In this document: piece after piece, positions 1-34,270 of the stretch | How the letters are laid out: every line of letters starts with the position of its first letter | Position numbering within the stretch: position 1 is the first letter of the stretch | Origin: a virus | Taxonomy: Duplodnaviria > Heunggongvirae > Uroviricota > Caudoviricetes | Virus record (IMG/VR): IMGVR_UViG_2671181055_000004 | Direction: 5' to 3' (one strand) | Length of the DNA stretch: 39,417 nucleotides | Program-made: the position numbers and the translations under genes | The notes under the pieces: generated by a model | Told to the model about the DNA's origin: nothing | Databases searched by the model: none | The model's input: the letters and a program-made list of their open reading frames with translations, nothing else

Positions 1-70
1 TCGGTTTACGGGAAACGGTAAACAGGGCGGCGAATGCTCTGCCATCGGACGGCACCGCCGTTGCCGCGAA
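1..70. repeat. Left inverted repeat of the invertible tail-fiber segment (window starts inside the crossover site)
   Basis: nt 1-70 is the reverse complement of 1250-1319 with one mismatch (position 38 vs 1282); weaker similarity continues to about 130 bp. Confidence 0.85.
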
Positions 71-362
71 TAGACTCGCCACCCCAAGAAATATTAATGG
101 GGTTCCCTTTGACGGGACGCAGGACATAAACATCACTTCTGGTATAACACAGCAGGATGCGGATTCCCGATATATCCAGGATATCAGGCTGGGAGCAGAG
201 AACAGGCAGGTAATGTACGGTGGGGCATATTACTCTGCGTACGGTAATGTTATGGCAGGCCTGCAGATTGACAGTAAAGTTGATGCTTCAAACGATTTTA
301 TAGCATTCAGACCCCTGCAAAAATTAGTCGGAGGTACATGGATTACGGTATCTCAGTTATAA
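1..362 (+). CDS. Tail fiber protein, variable C-terminal segment (Sv-like; 5' partial, fused to a constant part outside this contig)
   Basis: Open frame from position 3 to TAA at 360-362; translation ...ETVNRAANALPSDGTAVAANRLATPRNINGVPFDGTQDINI... shows tail-fiber repeat motifs; no start codon because the frame enters through the inverted repeat. Confidence 0.7.
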   Translation, partial: GLRETVNRAANALPSDGTAVAANRLATPRNINGVPFDGTQDINITSGITQQDADSRYIQDIRLGAENRQVMYGGAYYSAYGNVMAGLQIDSKVDASNDFIAFRPLQKLVGGTWITVSQL

Positions 363-413
363 ATAGTCAGTAAATAATATATTTTAAAACAGATTTATTT
401 CCAGGAGGATTTT

Positions 414-935
414 ATGGAACTAAAAAATATAACCCGTTATTATCCTGAAAATATGCCATATGGTAATAATGTTCAGTATTTCCAGAGTGAAGATGGTAAG
501 GATTTCTACGAATCCCTGCCATTATTCACCAAAAAATATAAACTTTGCATAACACCTGACAGCGGCGTTATCTGCTCAATATCACAGGACGCCTCGGCGC
601 TGTATCCTGCGGGGTTTTCTGTGGTTGAGGTCGATGAACTCCCTGAAGGCACGGATATTTCAGGAAACTGGAAGTTTGATAATGGCATAATCTCCCGTAT
701 TCCGGTTAACTACGCAAGAAAACTGGAAGCAATGCGCCAGTCATATCTTAATCAGGCATATGAAAAAATTAATGACTGGAGAACGGAGCTACAACTGGGC
801 ACCATCAGCGATGAAGACAGAGCAGCACTTACCCAATGGATGGCATACATCAGTCAGGTGAAGAAAATGGAACTACCCGCCATTAAAACAGAAGCTGAAT
901 TTAACGCCATTAAATGGCCTGAGCAGCCACAGTAA
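414..935 (+). CDS. Tail fiber assembly chaperone (Tfa / Mu U-like)
   Basis: 173-aa ORF directly after the tail-fiber C-terminus; C-terminal region resembles the Tfa family; lower GC than surrounding genes, typical of tfa. Confidence 0.8.
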   Translation: MELKNITRYYPENMPYGNNVQYFQSEDGKDFYESLPLFTKKYKLCITPDSGVICSISQDASALYPAGFSVVEVDELPEGTDISGNWKFDNGIISRIPVNYARKLEAMRQSYLNQAYEKINDWRTELQLGTISDEDRAALTQWMAYISQVKKMELPAIKTEAEFNAIKWPEQPQ

Positions 936-966
936 TAAAGAAGGCCGGAAGGCCTTCTGAATATCA

Positions 967-1317
967 TTATATACTTGCAGCCGTCACCCATGCTCCATTT
1001 AACAGATACTGCAACGGCCGGTAATACACGCCGCCGACGTTATCTGCCGTATTCTTACCGACATCCTGTACTTTAATTCCGGTAAGAACATTGCCGCCCC
1101 CCAGATTCAGATCCCAGCTTTCCCATGTTCCGGGCATATGTGCGGTCACCGACCCCAGTCTTATGGCGGTTACTGTTCCTGATGAGATAGTGATATCCTG
1201 CGTCCCGTCAAAGGGAACACCATTAATTGTGTGGGCATTTGCCAGCCTGTTCGCGGCAACGGCGGTGCCGTCCGATGGCAGGGCATTCGCCGCCCTGTTT
1301 ACCGTTTCCCGTAAACC
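967..1317 (-). CDS. Alternative tail-fiber C-terminal segment (Sv'-like), no own start codon, expressed only after inversion
   Basis: Minus-strand frame open from the inverted repeat (GLRETVNRAANALPSDGTAVAANRLANAHTINGVPFDGTQDITI...) to the stop at 967-969; N-terminal 23 aa are almost identical to the plus-strand Sv segment. Confidence 0.65.
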   Translation of the reverse strand, partial: GLRETVNRAANALPSDGTAVAANRLANAHTINGVPFDGTQDITISSGTVTAIRLGSVTAHMPGTWESWDLNLGGGNVLTGIKVQDVGKNTADNVGGVYYRPLQYLLNGAWVTAASI

Positions 1318-1319
1318 GA
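1250..1319. repeat. Right inverted repeat of the invertible tail-fiber segment
   Basis: Reverse complement of window 1-70. Confidence 0.85.
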
Positions 1320-1331
1320 GGTTTTCAGGAA
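1306..1331. promoter_or_regulatory. gix/hix-like recombination site (12-bp imperfect inverted half-sites flanking a 2-bp core at 1318-1319)
   Basis: TTCCCGTAAACC-GA-GGTTTTCAGGAA at the outer edge of the inverted repeat, next to the invertase gene; layout resembles Gin/Hin crossover sites (recalled, not aligned). Confidence 0.55.
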
Positions 1332-1396
1332 AGCCAGGATTAACTCTGTTTTATTCCTCATGCGACAATTCCGGCTTTTTATAATAAGGAAATCGT

Positions 1397-1969
1397 ATGC
1401 TGATTGGGTATATCAGGGTGTCAACAAATGACCAGAATACGGCGCTACAAAGAAATGCGCTGGAATGTGCAGGATGTGAGCTGTTTTTCGAAGACAGAAT
1501 AAGCGGTAAGACAAGGGAGCGTCCCGGACTTAAACGCGCATTAAAGCGACTCCGGCCAGGGGATACCCTGCTGGTCTGGAAACTGGATCGCCTTGGACGC
1601 AGTATGCAGCACCTTGTCCTTTTAACAGAAGAACTCCGGCAACGCGGCGTTAACTTCCGCAGCATTACGGACAATATTGATACATCCACTCCCATGGGAC
1701 GTTTCTTTTTCCATATAATGGGCGCGCTGGCGGAAATGGAGCGGGAACTCATTATTGAACGTACACGCGCGGGTCTTGCTGCTGCCCGTGCTCAGGGGCG
1801 TCATGGCGGCAGACCTCAGAAACTGACAGAGAAAGAGCGGGAGCAAATCGCCCGTTTGCTGGCTAATGGCGAGTCCCGTAAACAAATCGCACTGATATTT
1901 GATATTGGCCTTTCCACCCTTTATCGTTATTTTCCTGCCTCACCAGCTCCGTCACCAAAAGTACCGTGA
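1397..1969 (+). CDS. gin: Serine DNA invertase (Gin/Pin/Cin/Hin family)
   Basis: 190 aa, N-terminal MLIGYIRVSTNDQNTALQRNAL... with catalytic-serine region and C-terminal HTH (STLYRYF); close to my recall of Mu Gin; sits immediately outside the invertible segment. Confidence 0.9.
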   Translation: MLIGYIRVSTNDQNTALQRNALECAGCELFFEDRISGKTRERPGLKRALKRLRPGDTLLVWKLDRLGRSMQHLVLLTEELRQRGVNFRSITDNIDTSTPMGRFFFHIMGALAEMERELIIERTRAGLAAARAQGRHGGRPQKLTEKEREQIARLLANGESRKQIALIFDIGLSTLYRYFPASPAPSPKVP

Positions 1970-2054
1970 CGCTTTTTTGAATTTCCGCAAAACACATATT
2001 TTTCAGCGGTCGCTATTCTGACTCTGTTTAATTCAGAAACAGGCAGAAAAGACG

Positions 2055-4109
2055 ATGTCAGACTCCAAGTGGAAAATGCTCTCCGCCATGCCCGGAGAGT
2101 TTTCAGTCAAGGTTGCCGGTGGCACGGTGGCATTTATTGAAAGCCCTTTCCGCCCTTCGGGTAATAAAGGGGGGATCACCTTCGCAGACTGCGTGATCCG
2201 CTTCAGCACGAAAGAGCCATTATGGGTAATGCCGGTATCCGGTAATCCCAGTGCAGAAATCACCAGTTCAGGCGTGACTGGCATCATTCCAATCACATCT
2301 GACGTGGCCGGAACGCTCACGCCCTCCGACTGGAATGCACCGGATAACGCCGGGCCTTCCGGTAGCACGAATGGCAGCAGTTCAGAGCCGGAATATTACT
2401 TTGTTGTCATTCTCGCGGGTCAGTCAAATGGCATGGCCTACGGCGAGGGGCTGCCGTTACCGGATTCGTTTGACCGCCCGGACCCACGCATTAAGCAACT
2501 GGCACGCCGCAGTACGGTAACGCCCAACGGTACGTCGTGTACATACAACGACATCATTCCGGCAGACCACTGCCTGCATGATGTTCAGGATATGAGCGGG
2601 ATAAACCACCCGAAAGCTGATCTGGCAAAAGGCCAGTACGGGACTGTCGGTCAGGGGTTGCATATTGCCAAAAAACTGCTTCCCTATATCCCACAGAATG
2701 CCGGGATACTTCTGGTGCCCTGTTGTCGTGGCGGGTCAGCATTCACCACTGGAGCCGACGGCTCATTCAGTGAGGCCAGCGGTGCTTCCGCTGATTCTTC
2801 ACGCTGGGGGGCCGGTAAACCTCTGTATCAGGACCTGGTAAGCCGCACCAAAGTCGCGCTGGCGAAAAACCCGAAAAACAAACTTCTGGCTGTGGTCTGG
2901 ATGCAGGGAGAGGCAGACCTTGCCTCAGGAAGCCAGCAGCATAATAGTTTATTCACGGCCATGGTTCAGCAGTTCAGAACTGACCTGGCTCCGCTTGCTG
3001 CGCAGTGCGTGAGTGGAAATGCCACCACGGTGCCGTGGATTTGCGGTGATACCACGTATTACTGGAAAAACGCTGGCACCGATAAATATGAGGCAGTATA
3101 CGGTGGCTACAAAGGCAAGGAAGCACAGAAAATTTTCTTTGTACCGTTCCTGACGGATGAGAATGGACAGAGCACGCCAACGAATGCTCCGGCGGAAGAC
3201 CCGGATATTGTGGCTGTCGGGTATTACGGTGCAGCATCCCGAACCCAGGGCAGTTTTGTTTCGACACAGCGTGACAGCCATTTCAGCTCATGGGCACGCA
3301 GGGGCGTCATTTCAGACCGTCTGGCCTCAGCTATTATGCTCCATGCAGGGCGCACGGCTGAACTGATGCGTGGGCAGACCGTGACACCACCGGATGAGAA
3401 GCCGTCACCTGATACACCATCAAAACCGTCCACGCCACCCGCAGACACCACGACGATGAGTACGCTATTTGCTTACCGGGCATCTGAGTCTGAAGGACGG
3501 TTGACACCACAGGGTTGGGCTGCCGGAGGTGGCAAGGCTCAAATCGTGGATGATGCCGGAGCCAGCGGGGGTAAGGCAATGAAACTGACCAAGGAAACAG
3601 GAAGAGCCCCCTGGTACCTTGAGCATGATGCTGGTAATGGTGCGGACCTGCTGGGTAAAGGTGGTCTTGTCAGTTGTCGTTTTAAACTCGATGGCGCGCT
3701 TACGGCTAATCAGTACGCACTGGCGCTGTACTGGCCGGTTTCTGCCCTGCCGCAAGGGGTTACTCTGGAAGGAAATGCCGGTCATAACCTGCTGGCATCG
3801 TTCTACGTACAGAGCGATGCCACAGACCTTAACGTGATGTATCACAAAGGAAACACGGCGCAGAACACGAAGCTGGGGTCATTCGGCGCATTTAATAACG
3901 AATGGCATACGCTGGGCTTCCGTTTTGCCGGTAACAACAGTATTGAGGTGACGCCGGTCATTGATGGTAAGGACGGGACACCATTCATGCTGTCGCAGTC
4001 TCCGGTCGGCACGTTTACGGCAGACAAGTTGCGCGTGACCGATATCACTAAAAATGCGACTTACCCGGTACTGATTGACAGTATCGTGGTGGAAGTGAAT
4101 AACGCGTAA
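2055..4109 (+). CDS. SGNH/SASA-type carbohydrate O-acetylesterase with Pro/Thr-rich linker and C-terminal beta-sandwich-like domain (NanS-p-like sialate O-acetylesterase candidate)
   Basis: 684-aa ORF with RBS-like AGGCAGAAAAGACG before the ATG; motifs FVVILAGQSNGMAYGEG and VVWMQGEADLASG resemble sialate O-acetylesterase/DUF303 blocks; linker PPDEKPSPDTPSKPSTPPADTTT. Confidence 0.55.
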   Translation: MSDSKWKMLSAMPGEFSVKVAGGTVAFIESPFRPSGNKGGITFADCVIRFSTKEPLWVMPVSGNPSAEITSSGVTGIIPITSDVAGTLTPSDWNAPDNAGPSGSTNGSSSEPEYYFVVILAGQSNGMAYGEGLPLPDSFDRPDPRIKQLARRSTVTPNGTSCTYNDIIPADHCLHDVQDMSGINHPKADLAKGQYGTVGQGLHIAKKLLPYIPQNAGILLVPCCRGGSAFTTGADGSFSEASGASADSSRWGAGKPLYQDLVSRTKVALAKNPKNKLLAVVWMQGEADLASGSQQHNSLFTAMVQQFRTDLAPLAAQCVSGNATTVPWICGDTTYYWKNAGTDKYEAVYGGYKGKEAQKIFFVPFLTDENGQSTPTNAPAEDPDIVAVGYYGAASRTQGSFVSTQRDSHFSSWARRGVISDRLASAIMLHAGRTAELMRGQTVTPPDEKPSPDTPSKPSTPPADTTTMSTLFAYRASESEGRLTPQGWAAGGGKAQIVDDAGASGGKAMKLTKETGRAPWYLEHDAGNGADLLGKGGLVSCRFKLDGALTANQYALALYWPVSALPQGVTLEGNAGHNLLASFYVQSDATDLNVMYHKGNTAQNTKLGSFGAFNNEWHTLGFRFAGNNSIEVTPVIDGKDGTPFMLSQSPVGTFTADKLRVTDITKNATYPVLIDSIVVEVNNA

Positions 4110-4123
4110 GCAGGATAAAAAAA

Positions 4124-4158
4124 TGCCGCCGGTAAGGGAAAACAAGAAACCGGCGGCA
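4124..4158 (-). terminator. GC-rich hairpin with adjacent A/T tract (terminator-like when read on the minus strand)
   Basis: TGCCGCCGGT ... ACCGGCGGCA stem (10 bp) with a 15-nt loop, preceded on the plus strand by a run of A (a T-run 3' of the stem on the minus strand). Confidence 0.3.
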
Positions 4159-4253
4159 AAAAGATCGTTATATCCAAAGCAAAAAATGCAGTGCACCTTT
4201 TTACCTAACAGATATTACCGGTGTCAACACCATGTCAATAATTGGGAGGGATA

Positions 4254-4436
4254 ATGACATTTTTACAGCTTATTTTATTGTATTTCTGCACGGCAGTATG
4301 TGCGTTATATCTGGTGAGTGGTGGTTATAAGGCCATCAGAAATTATGTTCGCCGCAAAATTGAGGACGCAGCAGCTGAAAAACTCAGTAAAACAGCGCAG
4401 GTAACTCCGCTCCCAAAAGACCCGACCCAGCCCTGA
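4254..4436 (+). CDS. Small membrane protein (60 aa, one predicted TM helix, basic/charged tail)
   Basis: ATG at 4254 with GGGAGGG 4 nt upstream; MTFLQLILLYFCTAVCALYLVSGGYKAIRNYVRRK...; alternative TTG start at 4242. Confidence 0.4.
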   Translation: MTFLQLILLYFCTAVCALYLVSGGYKAIRNYVRRKIEDAAAEKLSKTAQVTPLPKDPTQP

Positions 4437-4471
4437 TTGCAGGGCTTTATTCCCGCATAAGGAGGATATAC

Positions 4472-4726
4472 ATGCCAGAAATTAAAGGCACCGTCACTGA
4501 AGACCTGGTAAAACAGGCACTGTATTCCGGTGAAGTAAATAAGTTGCTGAAAGCGCAGGTCCGCAAGGATTTTGAGGCACAAATCGACACTTACGTTGAT
4601 GAAGTGCTGGCAAAACTTATTGGGCCAGCAGTTGCGGCCAGTGATGCTGATAATGAGCCGAAAACCGACGCGCAGCCAGAGCAACCAGACCCGGCTCAGC
4701 CCGGAACTGACAGTACCATGATGTAA
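4472..4726 (+). CDS. Hypothetical 84-aa protein with acidic Pro-rich C-terminus
   Basis: Strong SD AAGGAGG 6 nt before ATG 4472; followed by a hairpin at 4733-4758. Confidence 0.5.
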   Translation: MPEIKGTVTEDLVKQALYSGEVNKLLKAQVRKDFEAQIDTYVDEVLAKLIGPAVAASDADNEPKTDAQPEQPDPAQPGTDSTMM

Positions 4727-4732
4727 CAATAC

Positions 4733-4758
4733 AAACCGGTGGTGTCCTCTGCCGGTTT
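4733..4758 (+). terminator. Hairpin after the 84-aa ORF (weak terminator candidate)
   Basis: AAACCGG-(12 nt)-CCGGTTT; the T-run is short. Confidence 0.3.
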
Positions 4759-4893
4759 GACACTAATGAAAACATCTTTGCCGCTATCCAGCCATATGTA
4801 ATCGCTGGATAGTATTTCGTATTCAGAAATATAGCTGCTTATGGAGCAGTCAATCCTGCTTCCCCATCCGGGCAGGCAAATGAACCGGTATCA

Positions 4894-5187
4894 TTAGTCC
4901 GATTCACGCTTTTGTAGAATCGTTCCCAGAATGCTATACAGCTCATTAGCCTGTTGCTCCATCATTGAGACGGAGGCTATACGGTGCAAAGTGATTTCAG
5001 GAGGTGGCACACCTCCATCTTCTTGCTGTGGAGGAAAAACATAAGATTTAATAAAAAAGTTGAAGCATATGAACTCTCCCGCACTCGAACTGTATTTGCA
5101 GGCATCTGAATAATCGGAAAAATAATCATTATAGATTTCCGCATTTTCAATCATTTTTCGATTTCTCGTCGTTACATGATTGTCCAT
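4894..5187 (-). CDS. Hypothetical 97-aa protein in a low-GC island, divergent from com/mom
   Basis: ATG at 5187 with AGAGG 6 nt upstream; surrounding 4740-5440 is visibly AT-rich compared with the phage backbone; no recognisable domain. Confidence 0.45.
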   Translation of the reverse strand: MDNHVTTRNRKMIENAEIYNDYFSDYSDACKYSSSAGEFICFNFFIKSYVFPPQQEDGGVPPPEITLHRIASVSMMEQQANELYSILGTILQKRESD

Positions 5188-5262
5188 AGCAGCCTCTTAC
5201 GCTGGCAATTAACCAATTGACTTCTATAAATTAGTTGATTTGTTTGCTTTGCGGTATTCAAA

Positions 5263-5270
5263 TGTACAAT
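5263..5270 (+). promoter_or_regulatory. Extended -10-like element (TGTACAAT) upstream of com/mom; possible Pmom-type promoter
   Basis: TGnTACAAT in the AT-rich intergenic region about 175 bp upstream of the com start; no good -35, as expected for an activator-dependent promoter. Confidence 0.25.
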
Positions 5271-5377
5271 CATTCAGCACTTATGCGTTACAGCACCGTT
5301 TAAAATTAGTGATCAAACTCATAAATTTTCGCTAATGACATTTCGTGTTATTTGTTGTATCAATTAAATAAATCAAA

Positions 5378-5400
5378 TCGATCGTTTTTGTCGATCGATT
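5378..5400. promoter_or_regulatory. Palindrome carrying two GATC (Dam) sites just upstream of com
   Basis: TCGATCG-tttttg-TCGATCGAT; GATC at 5380-5383 and 5393-5396. Confidence 0.4.
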
Positions 5401-5443
5401 GAGTGATAAAGATATCAACAACAAAGCAGGAGGTTATGCGGCC

Positions 5444-5644
5444 ATGTATCGAAACATACGGTGCCGACATTGTAACAAGCTACTGGCACGAGCCAGCTTC
5501 AGTTATCTGGAAGTTAAATGTCCGCGCTGTAAAACCCTCAATCAAATCACATCTCAGAGCGCCACAGAGCACCCCACATACACAAGGAAATCCTGTCGTG
5601 GGGAACAGAAAGCAAGTTACATCCCGTATCATCAGCACGCCTGA
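5444..5644 (+). CDS. com: Com-like zinc-finger translational activator of mom
   Basis: 66 aa, [34 protein letters not shown]... with CxxC...CxxC zinc finger; SD AGGAGG upstream; overlaps the downstream mom frame as in Mu. Confidence 0.75.
5572..5603 (+). promoter_or_regulatory. mRNA stem-loop sequestering the putative mom SD and GTG start (candidate Com-responsive translational switch)
   Basis: CCCCAC (5572-5577) pairs with GTGGGG (5598-5603); the loop contains AAGGA 9 nt upstream of GTG 5598. Confidence 0.45.
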
Positions 5645-6335
5645 ACTTATTCACTATAACGACAATATCGTCGGTTATGGCTCCCGTGAGTTACGGGTTG
5701 AGACAATAAGTTGCTGGCTGGCCCGGCTGGTCGTCGTCAATAAACATTACAGCCATCGTTTCGTAAATAATTCCTACCTTCATCTGGGCATATTTTCAGA
5801 ACGGGAGCTGGTTGGCGTAATGCAATGGGGTTATGCCCTTAATCCAAACAATGGTGCACGCGTCGTAACTGGCACGCAGAACCGCGAATATATGGAGCTT
5901 AACCGGTTATGGCTGCATGACTGTATGCCGAGAAACTCCGAATCAAGGGCAATCAGTTACGCGCTCAAACTAATCAGACAACTTTATCCGCAGGTGCAGT
6001 GGGTTCAGTCGTTTGCAGATGAGCGTTGTGGCTGTCTTGGTGTCGTGTACCAGGCAAGCAATTTTGATTATGTAGGCAGTCATGAAACAACATTCTATGA
6101 ACTTGATGGCGAGTGGTATCACGAGATTTGCAAGAATGCAATCAAACGAGGAGGACAGCGAGGTGAACATCTGCGGGCTAATATCGACAGAGCCAGTGTT
6201 CATAAATTCCGTCAGTTTCGTTACATCCGGTTTCTGGACAAGAGAGCCAGAAAACGCCTTAACACAAAGCTATTCAAAGTCCAGCCTTACCCAAAACCAC
6301 AAACAGTTAAAACTGGTTTGAAAGAGAGTGAATGA
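5598..6335 (+). CDS. mom: Mom-like DNA modification protein (start inferred at GTG 5598; the long upstream frame from 5403 is not a separate product)
   Basis: Long ORF ending at 6335 directly before the phage right end; overlaps the com 3' end in another frame; 245 aa from GTG 5598, close to my recalled size of Mu Mom (about 230-240 aa). Confidence 0.65.
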
Positions 6336-6370
6336 ACGCTTAAAAACTCATTCTAAAACTCAAAAGAAAA

Positions 6371-6411
6371 GCGCCGATTTAGTATCAAATAAGTTGCGTA
6401 TCGGCGTTTTT
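6371..6411 (+). terminator. Hairpin followed by T5 after mom (terminator candidate; the loop contains the innermost end repeat)
   Basis: GCGCCGAT ... ATCGGCG followed by TTTTT at 6407-6411; the loop is long (about 21 nt). Confidence 0.3.
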
Positions 6412-6463
6412 CAGCGGTATCAAATGAAATGCAAATCGGTATCAAAAAAATCGCCGCGCTATA
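6380..6463. repeat. Right-end terminal transposase-binding repeats (three GGTATCAAA-type sites) and phage terminus
   Basis: AGTATCAAATAAG (6381-6393), CGGTATCAAATGAAA (6414-6428), CGGTATCAAAAAAA (6437-6450); the same motif is repeated three times at the other phage end (38634-38797); terminal 27 bp align in register with the other end as an inverted repeat. Confidence 0.65.
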
Positions 6464-6548
6464 GACAGCCTAAGCGGCTGCTGACCTCCCTGACCATGCT
6501 GTAAATCTCTTTATCCTGGTTGTCACAGAATAAGCCCGGTAAAATACG
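6464..6548 (+). mobile_element. IS66-family element, 3' remnant of tnpB (host side of the insertion)
   Basis: 6466-6504 encodes QPKRLLTSLTML-stop, which joins in frame to the truncated TnpB ...GIDWR at 38810 once the shared GACA is counted once. Confidence 0.6.
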
Positions 6549-6798
6549 NNNNNNNNNNNNNNNNNNNNNNNNNNNNNNNNNNNNNNNNNNNNNNNNNNNN
6601 NNNNNNNNNNNNNNNNNNNNNNNNNNNNNNNNNNNNNNNNNNNNNNNNNNNNNNNNNNNNNNNNNNNNNNNNNNNNNNNNNNNNNNNNNNNNNNNNNNNN
6701 NNNNNNNNNNNNNNNNNNNNNNNNNNNNNNNNNNNNNNNNNNNNNNNNNNNNNNNNNNNNNNNNNNNNNNNNNNNNNNNNNNNNNNNNNNNNNNNNNN
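6549..6798. other. Assembly gap (250 N)
   Basis: Run of n characters. Confidence 1.
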
Positions 6799-7166
6799 AC
6801 GTCAGCGGGACCAAGACTGTTTTTTGTGGCAAGCGTCCCCAGACCAAGATAACCACGGGCCAGACGCTGGGCCTCCGCACCGGCATCAGCAATTTCTTTC
6901 AGGTTATTTTTCCGGGAAAAGGCATTCGCAGCGATAATGGCTTTAATGGACAGCGTAAGCTGGTTTAACTGCGCCTTATCCGGCTGAATACTGGCTTCAG
7001 CCAGAATATTCAGCAGTTCGGCCTGGAGAATATTCAGCCAGTCCTGACCAATCCAGCTGATACCTTTTTGTCCGTCACCTTCGGTAAACCAGGTGGTGGT
7101 ATTACTCTGCGCCGGTGCCAGCGCAGGCATATTCGCCACGCCGGAATTATTATCAACATGAAACAT
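6799..7166 (-). CDS. Tail fiber protein, N-terminal constant part (3' truncated by the gap)
   Basis: ATG at 7166; MFHVDNNSGVANMPALAPAQSNTTTWFTEGDGQKGISWIGQDWLNILQAELL... resembles tail-fiber N-terminal domains; the frame runs into the N gap. Confidence 0.7.
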
Positions 7167-17683: not shown

Positions 17684-18099
17684 ATAAAGCCCTTCTGGTT
17701 GCGCCCGAACACCGCCGCATCAGACTGCACCTGCGGTAAATCCCCGGATTCAGGGGCCGCACCGTCTGTATCCACGCCGACCGGCACGTTACCGTTCATG
17801 ACATCTTTCAGCCAGGCCAGCGCCTCACGGTAACGGTCACGCGCCTGATCGGATGCCCGCTGATCGCACAGGTAATAAAAGGCAATCGTGCAGCAATGCT
17901 GAACAAGGACCGCCGGAACCACCGCCAGCGGCAGCGTGTAACGGGAAGACAGATAGCTGTCGATAAGGGCAGACGCGTCCGTCAGTGCCCGGTTCAGCTT
18001 GCGCGTGTCCGGTTCATCCGAACGGGGCACGGCCAGTAATGGCCTGAGCAAATCCTCGCGGTAACGTGCCCGCATATCGGTTTCGGTGGCGTAATTCAT
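17680..18099 (-). CDS. Head-tail connector protein (Mu gp36-like)
   Basis: 139-aa ORF; stop/start overlap with neighbours. Confidence 0.55.
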   Translation of the reverse strand: MNYATETDMRARYREDLLRPLLAVPRSDEPDTRKLNRALTDASALIDSYLSSRYTLPLAVVPAVLVQHCCTIAFYYLCDQRASDQARDRYREALAWLKDVMNGNVPVGVDTDGAAPESGDLPQVQSDAAVFGRNQKGFI

Positions 18100-18455
18100 G
18101 CGCGCGCCTTTTTCGCCTGTCTGGCGTTATTGCCGGTCTTTTTCCGGGGAGCATCCTGTACGGTTTCGGCTTCGGCTAAATCTGCACCGGTCTCTGCATG
18201 AACCACACCCGCCACGGCTCCCGCATCATCACCAGGCGTCTGTAGTATTCGTACAGTGAGGCATGGCTCCGCTTCCAGTCGGGCAAGCTGCTCCGGGGTG
18301 ACGTCAACCTGCTGGCGTCCCCGCATGAACAGGAACCCCGCACGACGAAAATGCGTACGACTGCAACGCACTTCTGCCAGTACCGTGACAGGACTGTCAC
18401 CACTGACCTGAAGGCCTGAATCATCTGTTGCTGCCACAGTGTGATGTTCATTCAT
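18096..18455 (-). CDS. Hypothetical head-associated protein (119 aa, basic C-terminus)
   Basis: ATG 18455 with GGAGGG upstream; located between the major capsid gene and the connector gene. Confidence 0.45.
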   Translation of the reverse strand: MNEHHTVAATDDSGLQVSGDSPVTVLAEVRCSRTHFRRAGFLFMRGRQQVDVTPEQLARLEAEPCLTVRILQTPGDDAGAVAGVVHAETGADLAEAETVQDAPRKKTGNNARQAKKARA

Positions 18456-18498
18456 ATTTGCCCTCCGCAGGGGCCGGGCCGTAAGCCCGGCTCACCGT

Positions 18499-19446
18499 TT
18501 ACAGATAATCCGCGACAACCAGCTCCAGCTTGCCCTTCATCTCGTTAGAGACTGTGGCGTTACCGTCTGCGAACAGCTCGCGCTCCAGCAGCTGCACCGC
18601 CTGTTTTTCCAGCGAGGTGGGGACAACAATATGGGTGGGTTTGATGCCGAGTTTGCGGCCACCGTCAGCCTTAAAGTCACGCATGGCTGACCAGCCGTGC
18701 CACAGCGCATCCAGCGTCAGCGGTGACTGCATCATGTAGGCCATCTGCCAGAAGCCGTAGCCCACATTGCGACGGGCGGAAGCACCGAACACAAACTCGT
18801 TATCAGTAAACGCACGGCCTTCATCGACTTTTGTCTGGGCAACCAGTTCGGCTTTGCGGCGATCCTGATAAATCAGCGGTTTTACCGCGCGGGAGCAGTC
18901 AAGCAGATACCAGGCCGGGCCGCTGTAATCCGCCTGTGCACCGACAGAGCCGGTTTTTGCCACAAACATATTGCTGACCATCTGTGCATCACCGGAGCCA
19001 TCCACTTTGGGGTAAACAGGGTGTTCGGTATCAAAGAAGTTCTGGCCGTCATAGCAGGCCGCATTCAGACCATCACGCAGTGCAGCAAAGACCAGTTCAT
19101 CCGGTTGTGCCGCAGCGGCACGACCCATTTCCTGGAATAACGGGGAGTAGATGCCGAGATTGTCGTCTTCAAAGTCATCGCGGCTAATGGCAACGGTGCC
19201 TTCAAAGGTTTTGTTCACGATGGCGTAGCCATAGGCTTTCATCTTCTCGATGACGCGGGAGCCGATCCACTCACGGAACTGCGGGAACTGCCCCAGCCAG
19301 CCGTAGGTGTTGGATTTCGAGGTGGACGGCACGGTCATCGCAATTTTCTGGTACTGCGACGGAGCCATGGACATCCCGGCCTGAAAATCAGAACGGTAGC
19401 CCGTCATCAGGGCGGTGATCATCGCCGGTGTAATCGGGGTAGGCAT
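18499..19446 (-). CDS. Major capsid protein (Mu T-like)
   Basis: 315-aa ORF directly after the protease/scaffold gene. Confidence 0.85.
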   Translation of the reverse strand: MPTPITPAMITALMTGYRSDFQAGMSMAPSQYQKIAMTVPSTSKSNTYGWLGQFPQFREWIGSRVIEKMKAYGYAIVNKTFEGTVAISRDDFEDDNLGIYSPLFQEMGRAAAAQPDELVFAALRDGLNAACYDGQNFFDTEHPVYPKVDGSGDAQMVSNMFVAKTGSVGAQADYSGPAWYLLDCSRAVKPLIYQDRRKAELVAQTKVDEGRAFTDNEFVFGASARRNVGYGFWQMAYMMQSPLTLDALWHGWSAMRDFKADGGRKLGIKPTHIVVPTSLEKQAVQLLERELFADGNATVSNEMKGKLELVVADYL

Positions 19447-20579
19447 TATTGCATTTCCTCTTTCATTTTCAGGAACTCGGCTTCGGTTTTACCCAACAGA
19501 CGTGCGGCGGCGATATCTTCAGCCGACAGCACAGCGGTGGCGGTCTTTTTATCCGGCACGGTTACGGTGTCGGTCTGAAGAGTGGTCAGAGCCGCAACCG
19601 GCTGGCGGGCGTCAAGCTGTGCAGAAAGTGCCGCGACGCCAATCTGTTGTCCGAGTCCTTCCATGTATCCGCGTTCGCTTTTGAAAATGCGTCCTTCGGA
19701 CTCGGCCTTATCCAGCAACTGCTCCAGCGTGGTGCTGCCGTGTTGTGCCGACAGCGCGGCATATTCGGTACGCAGGGCGTTATACGTCTCAACGGGCACA
19801 TATTTCGTCAGATCAATAGTGCCGCCAGTTGGTGTGCCTTTTGCGGTTTCCAGTTCTGCCGACAGGCTGGCAACCTGCGTTTTCAGGGTGTCGTGCGCAT
19901 CCGCACGGGTTTTGATCCCGGTAAGGGCAGACAGCGCCGCCGTGCCCAGTTCCGGTGTAAATTCGTCACCGTCAGCCACGGTCAGACCGAGCGCCGTCAG
20001 CAACTGGCGTAATTGCTCATTCATGGGGGATTGCTCCTGAGAAGGGGAAACGACATAGAGATCATCAGCACTGAGTGCCGCGACAGGGTTCATACCCGTA
20101 ATACCCGGATCATTCGTCAGGGAAGCCATGCGCAACAGGTAGGGTTCCCCGGTGTCAGCGAAATAATGCATATATGCAGACAGATAGGCATATTCACGGT
20201 CATCAATATGTTTTTGTGCCTGTGGTGTCCATTCAGGTTTAATGAAAATCCCCTGACCCTCACGCCATTCGATGTTTTCCGGCTTAACCCATCCTGCAGC
20301 AATAGCCTTGAATCCGTTTTTCTGCGCATTCACGGAGTGATGGTCATAATCAATCAGTAACGGCTGATGCAGGGCGGAAAGCCCGGCTTTCATCCGGTTA
20401 CAGGCGGATTCGTTAATCAGCCAGCCTTCAGTCGGTTTTTCCGGGCGACCGTCACGGGCCTTTACCCGACCGGCTGGCAGTAACTGACACCATCCGTCGC
20501 CGGATGCAGTCAGCGAAGCTGAAAGCACGGCTAAACCGGAGGGGCGATTTGCGTCTTTTGGGTGATTTTCTGTCTTCAT
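19446..20579 (-). CDS. Head maturation protease / scaffold (Mu I-like)
   Basis: 377-aa ORF, MKTENHPKDANRPSGLAVLSASLTASGDGWCQLLPAG...; C-terminal half predicted coiled-coil, scaffold-like. Confidence 0.8.
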   Translation of the reverse strand: MKTENHPKDANRPSGLAVLSASLTASGDGWCQLLPAGRVKARDGRPEKPTEGWLINESACNRMKAGLSALHQPLLIDYDHHSVNAQKNGFKAIAAGWVKPENIEWREGQGIFIKPEWTPQAQKHIDDREYAYLSAYMHYFADTGEPYLLRMASLTNDPGITGMNPVAALSADDLYVVSPSQEQSPMNEQLRQLLTALGLTVADGDEFTPELGTAALSALTGIKTRADAHDTLKTQVASLSAELETAKGTPTGGTIDLTKYVPVETYNALRTEYAALSAQHGSTTLEQLLDKAESEGRIFKSERGYMEGLGQQIGVAALSAQLDARQPVAALTTLQTDTVTVPDKKTATAVLSAEDIAAARLLGKTEAEFLKMKEEMQ

Positions 20580-21230: not shown

Positions 21231-21351
21231 ATTGCCTCCGCATAAAGGATGAATATAAAATAAACAGGCGGTCAGTGTACGCTTAACTGGTAAAGTCGGT
21301 GCCTGCCTCCGGGTGGATCATGTATGCGGGTTCGACCCCCGCCACTGACCG

Positions 21352-28741: not shown

Positions 28742-28812
28742 TGTTACGCTGTCTCATGGTGTTCTCTGAGTCAGCGTAACCGTGAGGAAAAGGGGGCAGG
28801 ATTTGCGGAATA

Positions 28813-29235
28813 TCAGAAAAGCCGTGGCTGCGTGCGTTCCTGATGCAGGCGACGCTGGTTGCGGATAACGGAGTAAATCTGCGTCTCTGACATCTGGTAG
28901 TGGCGGCGCAGGGTTTCAATTTTTTCGCCCTGGCTCCAGCGGGAAAAAATTTCATTATTGCGCAGTTCGGTGAAAAGGGATTCACCGACCGGGAGATAAT
29001 AACCACGCCCGCCCATGTACCCGGCCTGTGCGGCTGCAACCTTACGGGCAAGCATTCCCGCCTGAGCAGGTTCAATCCCCTGACGGTGCAGTTCAGCACT
29101 GATCACATCAACCAGGTCCCGCAGCGTGCCGGGCCAGTTCTTTTTCAGCTCATCATCAGGAATATCATCCAGACGGTCAATCAGCGCGTGCAGCTGTTCG
29201 CTGTCACCAAACATGCTCATCTGTGTTTCAGCCAT
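28813..29235 (-). CDS. Mor/C-family transcriptional activator (position directly upstream of lys suggests the late activator C)
   Basis: 140 aa with ...GGRGYYLPVGESLFTELRNNEIFSRW... and a C-terminal HTH, matching the Mor/C family pattern. Confidence 0.8.
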   Translation of the reverse strand: MAETQMSMFGDSEQLHALIDRLDDIPDDELKKNWPGTLRDLVDVISAELHRQGIEPAQAGMLARKVAAAQAGYMGGRGYYLPVGESLFTELRNNEIFSRWSQGEKIETLRRHYQMSETQIYSVIRNQRRLHQERTQPRLF

Positions 29236-29277
29236 ACCCGCCTCCGGTCATCATTACACAGGGCAAGTTTAAAATAA

Positions 29278-29301
29278 AAATCCCGCGCTGTGGCGGGATT
29301 T
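29278..29301 (-). terminator. Rho-independent terminator on the minus strand between the GemA-like gene and the activator gene
   Basis: 9-bp stem AAATCCCGC/GCGGGATTT with a 6-nt loop, followed on the minus strand by TTTTATTTTAAA. Confidence 0.55.
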
Positions 29302-29305
29302 GGGG

Positions 29306-29818
29306 TTAACGGGGGAATGATTTTTCATACAGCCTGCAAACACGCTCATAACTCATCACTGCACGTTCCGACATATCCAGGGCTGCCAGCATTTTGCGGC
29401 GGTGCCAGCGTTTGAGACGCTCCAGCACATCAGAGGCCAGCGCGGGTTGTTGCTCCAGCCACTGCCAGTTAGCCACACCTTCGCCGTCGTTCTGCGCGGC
29501 CGTCTGCGATTTCACCCAGCGGTTAAGGGCCGTTTCCCCGCCATCAGAGATAAATCCCTGCCGGTGCATCACTTTCCAGATGGCGCGAATTTTGGCGGTC
29601 ACCGTACCCGGTTTTAAGGCCCGGTTAACCGGCTTCTGACGCACTTTAAAACCGCGTTTTTTGAAAACATCCAGCACGCGGGATAACTCACCGGGTGACA
29701 TATCACGGCAACTGGATTTGCCGGTGGCTGCCAGCAGCGCGGATGTATAGGTATCATGGTCAAGCTGTAGATCGCGTTTTGCGACATGTATTAAGGTAAT
29801 CAGGGAAGCGCGATTCAT
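29306..29818 (-). CDS. GemA-like regulatory protein (Mu gp16 family)
   Basis: 170 aa, MNRASLITLIHVAKRDLQLDHDTYTSALLAATGKSSCRDMSPGELSRVLDVFKKRGF... matches my recall of the GemA/gp16 N-terminal pattern. Confidence 0.6.
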   Translation of the reverse strand: MNRASLITLIHVAKRDLQLDHDTYTSALLAATGKSSCRDMSPGELSRVLDVFKKRGFKVRQKPVNRALKPGTVTAKIRAIWKVMHRQGFISDGGETALNRWVKSQTAAQNDGEGVANWQWLEQQPALASDVLERLKRWHRRKMLAALDMSERAVMSYERVCRLYEKSFPR

Positions 29819-29888
29819 TATCGTGGCTCCATAAAAAATGGGCGGTGTTACCGCACCGCCATGTCAATTAACATAAAAGGAAAAATCT

Positions 29889-30128
29889 ATGTCAGATATA
29901 AAAAATGCACTTGATGTTGCCGCATTCACAATGGCTGGAAATCTTATGGTAACCCTGTTCGATAAGGGGCTGATTTCCCGTGAGGAGGCAATACATATTA
30001 TCAATCTCGCTCAAAAAAACTCTACCCCGGAAAATGCAGAAGATATCCAGGATGGCTCATATATTAATACCGACTGGCATTTCGACAATCTCCGGGCCTG
30101 TATGGGGATTACCGCTGAAAAAGATTAA
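29889..30128 (+). CDS. Hypothetical 79-aa protein, low GC, opposite strand to the early operon
   Basis: ATG 29889 with AAGGA 8 nt upstream; 3' end overlaps the convergent gene by 20 nt. Confidence 0.5.
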   Translation: MSDIKNALDVAAFTMAGNLMVTLFDKGLISREEAIHIINLAQKNSTPENAEDIQDGSYINTDWHFDNLRACMGITAEKD

Positions 30129-30396
30129 AAATTTTTGCATAATGTTCAGATGTAAGAATTGCTGAACCATCAACACCGAGCCTACGGCGAACGTATTCCT
30201 CGCGGGCTATTTTATTATCCAGAGATACAGCATCCTTAATCAGGTTAATCTCCCGCTCCATTATCAAAAGGGCTTCTCTGGCTGCAAGATTTTCTTTTAT
30301 CGCATATTCGATAATGTCCCGCATACGTTCAAGCATGCCGATTTTAGCCAGTTCTTCGTCGATAGATTTAGGCGCAAATTTGATTTCTTTTTCCAT
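30109..30396 (-). CDS. Hypothetical 95-aa protein (predicted helical), low GC
   Basis: ATG 30396 preceded by GAGGATGAATAAT; translationally coupled to the upstream zinc-ribbon ORF (TAATATGG). Confidence 0.5.
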   Translation of the reverse strand: MEKEIKFAPKSIDEELAKIGMLERMRDIIEYAIKENLAAREALLIMEREINLIKDAVSLDNKIAREEYVRRRLGVDGSAILTSEHYAKIFNLFQR

Positions 30397-30397
30397 A

Positions 30398-30541
30398 TTA
30401 TTCATCCTCACAATTTATACATGCAGTGTCGTCGCCCATATCGCAGTGGTTACATTTTATCTCACCACAATGTGGGCACTCTTTCAGATACTCCGGGTCC
30501 TCATTTCCACAGGTGGGACATTCAACAATTTGCTCATCCAT
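30398..30541 (-). CDS. 47-aa zinc-ribbon protein with four CxxC pairs (below the ORF-track size cutoff)
   Basis: MDEQIVECPTCGNEDPEYLKECPHCGEIKCNHCDMGDDTACINCEDE; ATG 30541 overlaps the stop of the upstream gene (ATGGATGA). Confidence 0.45.
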   Translation of the reverse strand: MDEQIVECPTCGNEDPEYLKECPHCGEIKCNHCDMGDDTACINCEDE

Positions 30542-30866
30542 TATGTATCCCCTGTAATTCCGGCAAGGCCGAAAGATGGCACCAGTGCGTCACCTGTCCG
30601 TCCTCATCTTCAAGGCAGGCTCCGGTTTCTTCATCAATAAAAAAGCCTTCATACCCCATATGGCCGATGCGCAGTTCCTGTTGGTCACCATACTGAACAA
30701 TCAGCACGACAGCCTCCATATCAGGCGGAAATGCGTCATCCAGTGAATGCCAGGGATAACCGCGCAAATCCCCGAAATAAACGCCGGTCAGCGTTCCGCC
30801 ACAGAGCGGCATTCCGGCGGCACACACAAGAGGTTCATCTGATTCAACAAATAAGGTCGTTATCAT
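30534..30866 (-). CDS. Hypothetical acidic 110-aa protein
   Basis: ATG 30866 overlaps the upstream stop (ATGA); Asp/Glu-rich (e.g. IDEETGACLEDEDGQ). Confidence 0.5.
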   Translation of the reverse strand: MITTLFVESDEPLVCAAGMPLCGGTLTGVYFGDLRGYPWHSLDDAFPPDMEAVVLIVQYGDQQELRIGHMGYEGFFIDEETGACLEDEDGQVTHWCHLSALPELQGIHNG

Positions 30867-31414
30867 GGCGTTAACTCCCGTAATACAGCGTCCTCGGCAG
30901 TCCGGCGACGGTAATAAACTGCGTGAGCAGAATGTTCAGATATTCCAAACTTTTCGCCAATTTCCCGGAATGACAGACGGCGTGGGTAATCGGAATCACG
31001 CAGCTCACGTATAAGACGTACATCATCATCAGATATGCGCGTGCCGGGGCGTAACTCTCCGCACTTTGTTAATCCAGCACCAATCATTCCTGCCCGACAT
31101 CTGACAGAATCTTTATTACGTCCGAGATATTCTCCCATTTGCTGGCAGGTCATTGTTCTGGCATTTTTTCGAATAAACTTATCTTCATCAGGTGTAAATC
31201 TTGGGTGTTTATATTTCAGTAACTCCGGGTATGAACTGCGCAATACACCAGTCCGGTTATATACAGCCCAGACAGTTCTTTTTATTCTGGCAGCAATATC
31301 CTTAACCGGGGTGGATGAATAAAGCGCAATCAGCAGCGCATCTTCTTCAGGTGTCCACGGACGGACATGAGCGGGGGCGCGACCTTTTAGTCCCATGGGT
31401 TGTAATTTCATCAT
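30863..31414 (-). CDS. Hypothetical DNA-binding protein with three helix-turn-helix-like repeats
   Basis: 183 aa; repeats WTPEEDALLIALY..., FTPDEDKFIRKNA..., ISDDDVRLIRELR... each followed by a basic helix. Confidence 0.45.
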   Translation of the reverse strand: MMKLQPMGLKGRAPAHVRPWTPEEDALLIALYSSTPVKDIAARIKRTVWAVYNRTGVLRSSYPELLKYKHPRFTPDEDKFIRKNARTMTCQQMGEYLGRNKDSVRCRAGMIGAGLTKCGELRPGTRISDDDVRLIRELRDSDYPRRLSFREIGEKFGISEHSAHAVYYRRRTAEDAVLRELTP

Positions 31415-31417
31415 GCA

Positions 31418-31933
31418 TCACCCCCTGACTCGCTTTTCAGCAGCATAAAACTCATCAGACAGTATTTCGGTCATTTTCTGTTTTGCGGGTTTTACGCCGC
31501 ACTGAAGGTAAATCACATCGTCAACGCAGAACCACTTCACAGGGCCAAACAGGATTGCCGAGAAATCAATACCCAACCAGAACAACAGCGCATCGGTTCT
31601 GGCATACGTGACGGGCGAATATTCACGCCACAGACTGTTCAGTTCATCAGAGGCAACACGCAGGGTTTTAGGGATACGTGATGTGCGCGGTGTGCAGCTC
31701 CAGCCATTCGACGCAGTCGGTTTTCGCCATAAGTCGCGATGAAAAGGATATTTGTCCTCCGTAAAACGCAGTCCCTTAAAGTAAAATCCACTGATACCGG
31801 ATACAAATACCGACCGGCACGCAACATTCAGCACGGCCTCAAGGCGTTTTGCCTCATCCTTAACTTTCTGGCAGTCCTGCTGGTATTTTTGCCACGCAGC
31901 CAGCGCGGAAGGGTTTGATGTTTTAAAGAACAT
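31418..31933 (-). CDS. Hypothetical early protein (171 aa)
   Basis: ORF with start overlapping the upstream stop (TAATG). Confidence 0.45.
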   Translation of the reverse strand: MFFKTSNPSALAAWQKYQQDCQKVKDEAKRLEAVLNVACRSVFVSGISGFYFKGLRFTEDKYPFHRDLWRKPTASNGWSCTPRTSRIPKTLRVASDELNSLWREYSPVTYARTDALLFWLGIDFSAILFGPVKWFCVDDVIYLQCGVKPAKQKMTEILSDEFYAAEKRVRG

Positions 31934-32466
31934 TACGCCACCTCCGCAGATATCCCGGCAGGCGCTGCTGTCCGGTCAACAATCAGGTAGCGCAGAACAT
32001 GTTCAGTGATATTCCAGCCGCTTAAACCGCAGATAATGACGCCCAGGCGTATGTCGATATACGCCATCACAAACTGGGGCACGCCTTCTTTCATGGCCTG
32101 CTCATCAACTTCAGCCACCACATAAACGGTTTCACAGGTCAGAACGCCCTGAGCAAATTCCCACGCCATCGACGGAATATCATGCCCCTCAATCCATGGC
32201 AGGGATTTTCTGAAGCCGCACCACTGAACATCATCAGCCGCAGATTCCTGGCTGCATTTGCGACGAACCGGCTGCACCGGGCGGGGACGCGGAATATCAT
32301 AAAAACCGTTACATTCCGTCAGCACGCCTGCATCAACCGCATCACGCAGAAAATAAACCATGGAGGATGGCGGCATATTCATTTTTTCAGCCAGTACACC
32401 GCAGGTCAGGCGGCCATAAATACACAGCCAGTTTTTAACCCCTTCAAGCACTTTTGCATCAATCAT
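31933..32466 (-). CDS. Hypothetical early protein (177 aa) with possible N-terminal winged helix
   Basis: ATG 32466; no recognised family. Confidence 0.45.
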   Translation of the reverse strand: MIDAKVLEGVKNWLCIYGRLTCGVLAEKMNMPPSSMVYFLRDAVDAGVLTECNGFYDIPRPRPVQPVRRKCSQESAADDVQWCGFRKSLPWIEGHDIPSMAWEFAQGVLTCETVYVVAEVDEQAMKEGVPQFVMAYIDIRLGVIICGLSGWNITEHVLRYLIVDRTAAPAGISAEVA

Positions 32467-32611
32467 GATTTATTTCCCCACCACATTATTAATGACGATA
32501 TAAACGTATTTCATATTTCTTAACCCTTATTTTCTGTTTTCAGGCGCAAGCAGTCCCCTGACGCGAGCGCCATAATTAAAATGAAGTGATATTTAATTGA
32601 TTAATGCGGTG

Positions 32612-33142
32612 TTATTTATTCAGTCCGGCGTCCTGTTCAAAAGGCTCGACATAAAAACTTTCAGCGCCTTTATTCACCTTGATACCGGCAATGCCTTTCA
32701 CAGCATCCGGCTCCGCCAGGACGGCTTCCTTGTTCACTTCCTCTTTCGTGCGGATGAAACGCTCAAGCCCCATACGGCGCAGCATTTCAATCACACCTTC
32801 CACATCACGGCTGACGCTGCATGATGGCGTTCCCAGCCGCCATGACACCGTTCCGGTGGTCAGATTGGCTGTTTTGGTTTTGCCGCCGTTCGTCAGCTCA
32901 TCACGGTTGGTTTTGCACCAGTCCTGAATCCCTTTAAAAAGCACTTTGATTTGCTTTTTAAGATTTTCAATCTGCGGCGTATAACGGGCGGTGATTTCTG
33001 CCACTTCGTCATTCATCGCCGTTTCCAGGCGCAGCGCCTCTCGCTGAATATCTCCCAGGGTGCGGATATCACGGCTGACTTCTTCCCGGGTCTGCGGTGC
33101 CGCCTCGGCTGCGGCCTTTAATTTTGTAACGCGTTTAGCCAT
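32612..33142 (-). CDS. gam: Gam-like host-nuclease inhibitor (DNA-end binding protein)
   Basis: 176 aa; ...RTLGDIQREALRLETAMNDEVAEI...CKTNRDELTNGGKTKTANLTTGTVSWRLGTP...LERFIRTKEEVNKEAVL... closely parallels Mu Gam as I recall it. Confidence 0.85.
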   Translation of the reverse strand: MAKRVTKLKAAAEAAPQTREEVSRDIRTLGDIQREALRLETAMNDEVAEITARYTPQIENLKKQIKVLFKGIQDWCKTNRDELTNGGKTKTANLTTGTVSWRLGTPSCSVSRDVEGVIEMLRRMGLERFIRTKEEVNKEAVLAEPDAVKGIAGIKVNKGAESFYVEPFEQDAGLNK

Positions 33143-33153
33143 TTTGTTTTTCC

Positions 33154-33447: not shown

Positions 33448-33451
33448 GGAA

Positions 33452-34002: not shown

Positions 34003-34003
34003 C

Positions 34004-34258: not shown

Positions 34259-34270
34259 ATAACACCTCAT

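Follow-up and report, generated by a model that had tools for sequence, protein, structure and literature searches.

Very probable mis-orientation of one contig in the record of a Mu-like Escherichia coli prophage inserted in ISEc8

Organisation of the window

The window, that is, the whole 39,417-nt stretch analysed here (IMG/VR record IMGVR_UViG_2671181055_000004), consists of two contigs, A and B, separated by its single run of N. It houses one 38.6-kb Mu-like transposable element inside tnpB of ISEc8, an insertion sequence of the IS66 family. The features are listed below, with strands as in the window.

1-6548: contig A, from the variable end of S to the prophage right end plus 85 nt of ISEc8
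1-79: left arm of an inverted repeat, with the TC core of a gix site at 1-2
1-362, + strand: variable 3' end of tail-fibre gene S (Sv), stop codon at 360-362
414-935, + strand: U-like tail-fibre assembly gene (Pfam Caudo_TAP, E = 4.8e-19)
967-1319, - strand: S'v, the alternative C-terminal part of S for the flipped segment
1241-1319: right arm of the inverted repeat, with a second gix-like site
1397-1969, + strand: gin-like serine DNA invertase, intact, 190 aa (Pfam Resolvase, 1.6e-51; HTH_7)
2055-4109, + strand: accessory gene with SASA esterase and DUF6645 domains (Pfam), between gin and com/mom
5444-5644, + strand: com (from annotation of identical proteins)
5598-6335, + strand: mom (Pfam Mom, 7.8e-78; annotation of identical proteins)
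6381-6463, + strand: prophage right end, terminus at 6463, with GGTATCAAA-type repeats at 6381, 6416 and 6438 (+)
6464-6548, + strand: ISEc8, last 41 nt of tnpB (6464-6504) and 44 nt downstream
6464-6467: target duplication, copy 1, GACA
6549-6798: run of exactly 250 N
6799-39417: contig B
6799-7166, - strand: constant 5' part of S, codons 1-122 and two bases of codon 123
7166-38807, - strand: rest of the prophage (baseplate, tail, head, lysis and early genes)
34495-35436, - strand: MuB (Pfam Phage-MuB_C)
35510-37597, - strand: MuA (Pfam Mu-transpos_C, HTH_Tnp_Mu_1)
37600-37830, - strand: ner-like gene
38016-38561, + strand: repressor
38635-38807: prophage left end, with GGTATCAAA-type repeats at 38635, 38687 and 38782 (+)
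38808-38811: target duplication, copy 2, TGTC
38808-39313, - strand: ISEc8, first 311 nt of tnpB (38808-39118) and part of tnpA (Pfam TnpB_IS66, 5.9e-37)
39314-39417: start of an IS3-family element interrupting tnpA of ISEc8 (from the IS3/IS600 annotation of its matches); probable end of contig B

The genes for a MuA-type transposase and a MuB-type ATPase adjoin the repressor and ner region at the left end, which is a Mu-like trait. The invertible segment is adjoined by the gene for a serine recombinase with a resolvase domain and a C-terminal HTH, the product of which is identical to Mu Gin at 137 of 191 residues. The SASA/DUF6645 accessory gene occupies the same position in relatives.

The tail-fibre gene S is divided between the contigs. 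In NZ_CP103972.1, S is intact and 891 nt long; its first 368 nt equal the reverse complement of 6799-7166 but for one mismatch, and its last 362 nt equal positions 1-362. An earlier note on this DNA had placed the constant part on the minus strand and the variable part on the plus strand, and this comparison bears it out. The gene is rebuilt only when contig A is flipped, in which case 368 nt, 161 missing nt and 362 nt give the full 891 nt; the missing stretch corresponds to 3516591-3516751 of NZ_CP103972.1. Flipping brings position 1 beside position 6799, and the true distance between them, 161 nt, is of the same order as the 250 N.

The arms of the inverted repeat are 95% complementary. Both recombination sites are 26 bp long, inverted, have the core TC and align with gixL and gixR of Mu, the outer half of the left site, which falls in the missing 161 nt, having been read from NZ_CP103972.1. 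In locus L003 and about 20 others the segment is inverted with respect to the window, giving an S gene of 882 nt (368 + 161 + 353). Overall, about 22 loci hold the segment in one state and 15 in the other, and one insertion site was found in both (L019 versus L048). The host-range switch of this prophage looks active.

Prophage ends, target site and relatives

The prophage termini at 6463 and 38807 are the bases at which similarity to complete E. coli genomes with the prophage inserted elsewhere comes to an end. The terminal sequences 6437-6463 (CGGTATCAAAAAAATCGCCGCGCTATA) and 38781-38807 (CGGTATCAAATGATTCACCTGGTTATA), both read on the plus strand, are direct copies of each other with 20 of 27 positions identical, and all six GGTATCAAA-type repeats, three per end, lie on the plus strand. 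The window holds 16 matches to this repeat type against 7.2 expected, and none of 100 shuffled sequences had 16 or more. A transposable element requires its ends to be inverted relative to each other. Inverted terminal repeats, the putative binding sites of the transposase, are absent from the window as written and present once contig A is flipped; in complete genomes carrying the prophage the two end pieces lie on opposite strands. The earlier observation that both phage ends face the same direction therefore stands, whereas its description of them as inverted-repeat copies was loose, since as written they are direct copies.

The DNA flanking the prophage tells the same way. The reverse complement of 6464-6548 overlaps the sequence from 38808 onward by TGTC, and the two together give an intact tnpB of IS66/ISEc8 with one mismatch, of 311 + 41 - 4 = 348 nt, which is the length of the intact gene; again, only the flip rebuilds it. 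That the halves of tnpB lie on opposite strands had been noted before, though with the left-hand half given as 38795-39118, of which 38795-38807 is in fact phage end. Only with contig A flipped do the IS flanks make up one target bearing a 4-bp duplication, so that a single insertion event links the two contigs. Both flanks are 99–100% identical to ISEc8 (tnpA, tnpB, tnpC), and that at 6464-6548 matches ISEc8 of Stx2 phages at 100%. The copy in the window differs from intact ISEc8 in being doubly disrupted, by the prophage in tnpB and by the IS3-family element in tnpA. The match of draft CWZC01000017.1 ends at 39313, whereas the closed genome CP176614.1 matches 39314-39417 to the last base.

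Related prophages were surveyed at 41 loci drawn from complete genomes, long contigs and two Stx phages, which include both states of the invertible segment and at least 22 different right-hand flanks; the element is thus found at many unrelated host sites. Look-ups by gin, the tape measure, the baseplate protein and the small ORF spanning the right gix site, in two forms, supplied 35 further collinear examples, all at other insertion sites. Probes for constant S and for gin and mom, all taken from the plus strand of the window, fell on opposite strands at every one of the 41 loci. At L003, for example, a collinear alignment of 32,013 nt at 99.69% identity was obtained, 6799-38810 matching on one strand and, beyond an interval of 161 nt, 1193-6469 matching on the opposite one, and the same opposite-strand relation of the two contigs' sequences is seen in the Stx1a phage LC727895. 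Positions 1-6463 are 100% identical to two complete genomes. Mu-like prophages of E. coli chromosomes (e.g. NZ_CM128582.1 at sgrR, NZ_CP136993.2 and NZ_CP145714.1) are 99.4–99.7% identical to the window prophage over nearly its whole length, and the inserts annotated as 'inserted Bacteriophage Mu-like phage' in Stx phages LC727895 and LC727881 about 92%. The chromosomal copies and the Stx-phage inserts have the same ends and the same genes as the window prophage, but they are collinear, as the window is not, and their insertion sites differ.

The insertion site in ISEc8 is common only to CP176614.1 and a set of draft assemblies. CP176614.1 is identical to the left-hand 10.6 kb of contig B, with no mismatches and one 1-nt gap, over a region covering both the IS junction and the second IS insertion. 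The ORF across the left junction (38795-39118) is matched in CP176614.1 and in about 108 draft contigs; no complete RefSeq E. coli genome record spans this junction. For the ORF across the right junction (6328-6504) there is no recorded match, and the exact junction patterns found no match in genome, viral or metagenome contig collections. If the prophage in CP176614.1 is collinear, it would end ...GCGCTATA/GACAGCCTAAGC.

Origin of the opposed orientation

With contig A flipped, the split genes become whole, the target duplication reappears and the prophage is collinear with every relative, and the proposal of the earlier note that reverse-complementing 1-6548 yields a collinear prophage holds for S, for tnpB and for the gene order alike. 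It is very probable that both contigs are pieces of one ordinary Mu-like E. coli prophage in which contig A is reversed relative to contig B, and we hold with equally high confidence that the orientation in the window is an artefact of assembly and not a biological rearrangement. We infer a normal arrangement in the source DNA and an error introduced at scaffolding. The corrected order would begin with the 3' part of ISEc8, the right end, mom, com, gin and the invertible tail-fibre segment, and would continue through the 161 missing bases of S, constant S, the tail, head and early genes and the left end to the 5' part of ISEc8. The element is then one complete and probably functional Mu-like prophage.

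This locus is hard to assemble: it contains an invertible segment of the Gin type, between 79-bp inverted repeats, and adjoins multi-copy IS elements. Three contig ends lie at repeat boundaries: one at the gix core, one 85 nt into ISEc8 and one 104 nt into the IS3-family element. Position 1 is the first base of the TC core of gix, and its counterpart in phage Mu (NC_000929) is the base labelled 'G-segment boundary', so that contig A does begin exactly at the crossover core, as had been suggested. The accompanying idea, that assembly broke at the inverted repeat, fits the start of contig A but not the end of contig B, which stops 161 nt short of it. Contig A, moreover, is broken at the left gix site but runs unbroken through the right arm and the right gix site. 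Given these two facts, the repeat alone fails to explain the breaks.

The end of contig B at 6799 lies at no known repeat. That the missing 161 nt might be a repeat common to the tail-fibre genes of other prophages was considered and rejected: of 5426 genomes, 223 contain them, the median copy number being one, and they are single-copy in almost all carriers, which leaves the break at 6799 without a clear cause. Were a co-resident defective copy responsible, the nearest sequence difference is 314 nt away. The same segment is also the site of a gap in the public scaffold KB732958.1, where 1705 N extend from within one repeat arm to within the other. There the flanks are correctly oriented and the whole segment is lost, whereas the window retains the segment, lacks 161 nt that lie outside it and has the 6.5-kb contig flipped. 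KB732958.1 exemplifies a general kind of artefact in which gaps or orientation errors arise at invertible segments and at copies of IS elements; the same prophage locus is broken there and in the window.

One alternative is a genuine inversion of about 6.6 kb, from the gix core in S to the flanking ISEc8, for which either Gin at a cryptic site or recombining IS copies could be responsible. In its favour, contig A has one of its ends precisely on the crossover core of Gin, gin is intact, and the invertible segment does flip in nature; if the 250 N stood for 161 nt of S and 89 nt of IS, the joint would fall about 174 nt into the IS. Yet in ISEc8 no gix-like site turned up within 1.25 kb past the insertion point, where the best candidate, which was rejected, matches at 15 of 26 positions (shuffled sequences average 14.5, with a maximum of 17). 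Contig B should also have crossed the unique 161 nt up to the joint, but it stops before them, and none of the 41 related loci shows such an arrangement. A genuine inversion is accordingly judged very unlikely. If it had happened, the tail-fibre gene would be split and the prophage put out of action, with host-side DNA rearranged by the invertase.

It is just as unlikely that contigs A and B derive from separate Mu-like elements of one genome, such as a full prophage and a defective copy of the common kind, and were wrongly joined, in which case flipping contig A would not restore the truth. Many E. coli strains do hold two such elements; in TOE17, for instance, a defective copy lies at ypdB and there is a left end by citD, and positions 1-6463 of contig A match the defective ypdB copies at a reported 100.0% identity. 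However, contig A is flanked by tnpB of ISEc8 and not by ypdB, and gin, intact in the window, is annotated as frameshifted in the defective copies, being one base shorter there. Furthermore, the flank of contig A joins that of contig B with no base out of place, given a 4-bp duplication, and yields a tnpB exactly as long as the intact gene, as independent elements would not. The idea that the N run merely masks 250 real bases of a contiguous record, whose orientation would then be that of a finished sequence, draws on the round length of the run and on the description of one sequence collection as N-masked in places, but is extremely unlikely, since 250 bases cannot join the two edges (85 nt into the IS and codon 123 of S) without a novel junction, positions 1 and 39417 lie at repeat boundaries as contig ends do, and the junction patterns are absent from the genome, viral and metagenome collections.

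Mis-orientation of contig A serves chiefly as a quality flag. Annotators of the window as written would call a truncated tail-fibre gene and same-direction prophage ends, and might describe two partial prophages, where the corrected record would be a 38.6-kb element with intact ends.

Comparison with phage Mu

The orientation finding is itself without new biology; its by-products are modest variations on Mu, namely a 4-bp target duplication, TATA termini and a minimal invertible segment with one assembly gene. Nucleotide similarity of the window prophage to Mu and SfMu is weak, but the gene order is that of Mu (NC_000929: S, U, U', S', gin, com, mom, right end), with com and mom adjoining the right end in both. 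In both, too, the crossover lies within S and switches the C-terminus of the tail fibre. The gix-like sites of the window, TTATCGATAACG-TC-GGTTTACGGGAA and TTCCTGAAAACC-TC-GGTTTACGGGAA, may be compared with TTATCCAAAACC-TC-GGTTTACAGGAA in Mu. The invertible segment of the window prophage is 1.3 kb long and has one assembly gene, against 3 kb and two in Mu. Unlike Mu, it has extra genes between gin and com (SASA/DUF6645, DUF1378 and DUF826), and its ends are TATA...TATA where those of Mu are TG...CA.

No relevant report of a 4-bp duplication in Mu-like prophages of E. coli came up in a search of the literature. The target duplication of Mu is 5 bp (PMC3325207), whereas in the family of the window prophage it was 4 bp in all five insertions considered, in agreement with the length of tnpB.

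Phage ends and orientation of the contigs

The window contains a single run of N, exactly 250 bases long (6549-6798), and the prophage genes are divided between the contigs on either side of it as follows.

Contig A (1-6548), plus strand: last 362 nt of the tail-fibre gene S; tail-fibre assembly gene (414-935); Gin-like invertase; SASA/DUF6645 gene; two small genes; com; mom; one phage end
Contig B (6799-39417), minus strand: first 368 nt of S; baseplate, tail, head and lysis genes; Mor; Gam; MuB-type ATPase; MuA-type transposase
Contig B, beyond the MuA-type transposase: divergent repressor gene, then the other phage end

An earlier note had proposed that contig A is placed backwards in the scaffold, and this is very probably correct. 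The phage termini lie at 6463 and 38807, where similarity breaks off to complete E. coli genomes with the prophage at other sites. The terminal 27 nt at these two positions are direct copies of one another on the window plus strand, and the GGTATCAAA-type repeats, three per phage end, are likewise all on the plus strand (6/6); the window holds 16 matches to this repeat against 7.2 expected by chance, a number not reached in any shuffle. As written, then, the ends do point the same way, as the note had claimed, and since a transposable element requires its terminal repeats to be inverted, the window in this form cannot represent a single element. Reverse-complementing contig A inverts the phage ends, restores the 891-nt S (with 161 nt still lacking), joins the flanks into one target site duplicated over 4 bp, and makes the prophage collinear with every relative compared. 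It also brings position 1 to face 6799, where the real spacing of 161 nt is near the 250 N written.

The prophage termini read 5'-TATA...TATA-3' (window 6460-6467 and 38804-38811; also related loci L003, L005, L006 and L007). With the flanks on either side read in the window and in four complete prophages, the target duplication was 4 bp in all five insertions (GACA, AACA, TACG, GACG and TAGA); no 1-nt shift of the ends gave a 5-bp duplication in these five insertions. This E. coli family thus differs from phage Mu, which has TG...CA ends that are transferred 5 bp apart (PMC3325207).

The tail-fibre gene and related loci

The intact S of NZ_CP103972.1 (locus L001) is 891 nt long. Reverse-complemented, 6799-7166 gives its first 368 nt with a single mismatch, and its last 362 nt are window 1-362, so that the two strands do carry two parts of one gene, as had been argued; the middle 161 nt (L001:5840-6000) are absent from the window. 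In the complete prophage of NZ_CM128582.1, which matches 6799-38810 on one strand over 32,013 nt at 99.69% identity and 1193-6469 on the opposite strand, the counterpart of 6799 is exactly 161 nt away from that of the repeat arm, and the 1.3-kb segment is inverted relative to the window. A Mu-like insert in the Stx1a phage LC727895 is ordered likewise, its two matches lying about 161 nt apart. We gathered 41 loci, each with the constant part of S plus gin or mom, from complete genomes, long contigs and metagenome contigs, with at least 22 different host flanks; probes from the window plus strand fell on opposite strands in every one, and the arrangement in the window was absent from all 41. 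What the note found is very probably an artefact of assembly; the prophage itself is an ordinary representative of a large family of such Mu-like elements in E. coli.

A relative of the prophage (about 92% identity) lies inside Stx1a- and Stx2c-converting phages (LC727895.1, LC727881.1), a prophage within a prophage. Between gin and com (2055-4726) the window encodes a 684-aa protein with a sialate-O-acetylesterase-like (SASA) domain and DUF6645, and two small proteins (DUF1378, DUF826); Mu has no counterpart at this place, and these genes may be accessory cargo. Relatives bear a 'tRNA-OTHER' annotation between two head-morphogenesis genes (L003 18474-18553, window about 21231-21351); ARAGORN found no tRNA anywhere in the window.

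The invertible segment and the contig break

The invertible segment (1-1319, 1319 bp) is bounded by inverted-repeat arms, 1-79 and 1241-1319, that are 95% complementary. Aligned with Mu, the left gix-like (Gin crossover) site is TTATCGATAACG-TC-GGTTTACGGGAA and the right TTCCTGAAAACC-TC-GGTTTACGGGAA, compared with TTATCCAAAACC-TC-GGTTTACAGGAA in Mu; the TC core is common to both window sites. Position 1 is the T of this core, homologous to the base annotated as the G-segment boundary in the Mu record. The segment encodes two alternative S C-termini and only one tail-fibre assembly gene; whereas Mu has S-U and S'-U' pairs, the alternative fibre of the flipped state here has no assembly gene downstream. 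The Gin-like invertase is intact (137/191 identical to Mu Gin). Among related loci about 22 have the segment in one state and 15 in the other, and one insertion site (right flank TTAGCCCCGCTA) occurs in both states in closed genomes (L019, CP023061.1; L048, CP016828.1), so the switch works in nature.

A genuine Gin-mediated inversion extending into the IS could also give the arrangement as written, but it is unlikely, as gix-like matches in the first 1.25 kb of ISEc8 past the insertion point do not exceed the chance level (best 15/26; shuffle mean 14.5, maximum 17). That two separate prophages were wrongly joined is very unlikely because the IS halves match.

The suggested assembler break at the inverted repeat can be only part of the story: contig A stops at the left gix core and reads through the right one, and contig B halts inside unique sequence, 161 nt short of the repeat. 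The missing 161 nt are single-copy in nearly all genomes with that piece, which leaves the break at 6799 without evident cause. If the genome also carried one of the common defective copies, the nearest difference would be 314 nt from the contig end, which misfits a short-read k-mer effect. In another public scaffold, KB732958.1, the entire segment is lost to a 1705-N gap (17744-19448) whose edges each lie 37 nt inside a repeat arm, one in the left and one in the right; the locus is therefore a recurrent trouble spot for assemblers.

Defective copies and the ISEc8 insertion

Two loci in complete genomes, L001 and L002 (NZ_CP069093.1), match contig A over its whole phage part (1-6463) at a reported 100.0% identity, gin differing by a 1-nt indel. 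Both prophages are defective and internally deleted, with early or head/tail genes directly abutting the tail-fibre region. All six defective copies inserted in ypdB (L002, L036, L037, L041, L044, L045) are in the same segment state as contig A, and gin, checked in all of them but L041, is mostly frameshifted or split. Such widespread remnants could confuse assembly of strains also carrying a full copy.

The halves of tnpB do lie on opposite strands, as the note claimed; of the ORF cited for this (38795-39118), 13 nt belong to the phage end. Joined through a TGTC overlap, the reverse complement of 6464-6548 and the window from 38808 rebuild ISEc8 tnpB with one mismatch and at the intact length (311 + 41 - 4 = 348 nt); several Stx2 phages carry ISEc8 sequence with 100% identity to 6464-6548. 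About 108 draft assemblies and one closed chromosome, CP176614.1, also contain the left-junction fusion ORF. Over the stretch compared, 28794-39417, the window and CP176614.1 differ by no mismatch and one 1-nt gap. Within that match a second IS, of the IS3 family, interrupts ISEc8 tnpA at 39313/39314, its beginning occupying the rest of the window to 39417; the draft CWZC01000017.1 has the same prophage insertion without it, so the IS3 insertion marks a sublineage.
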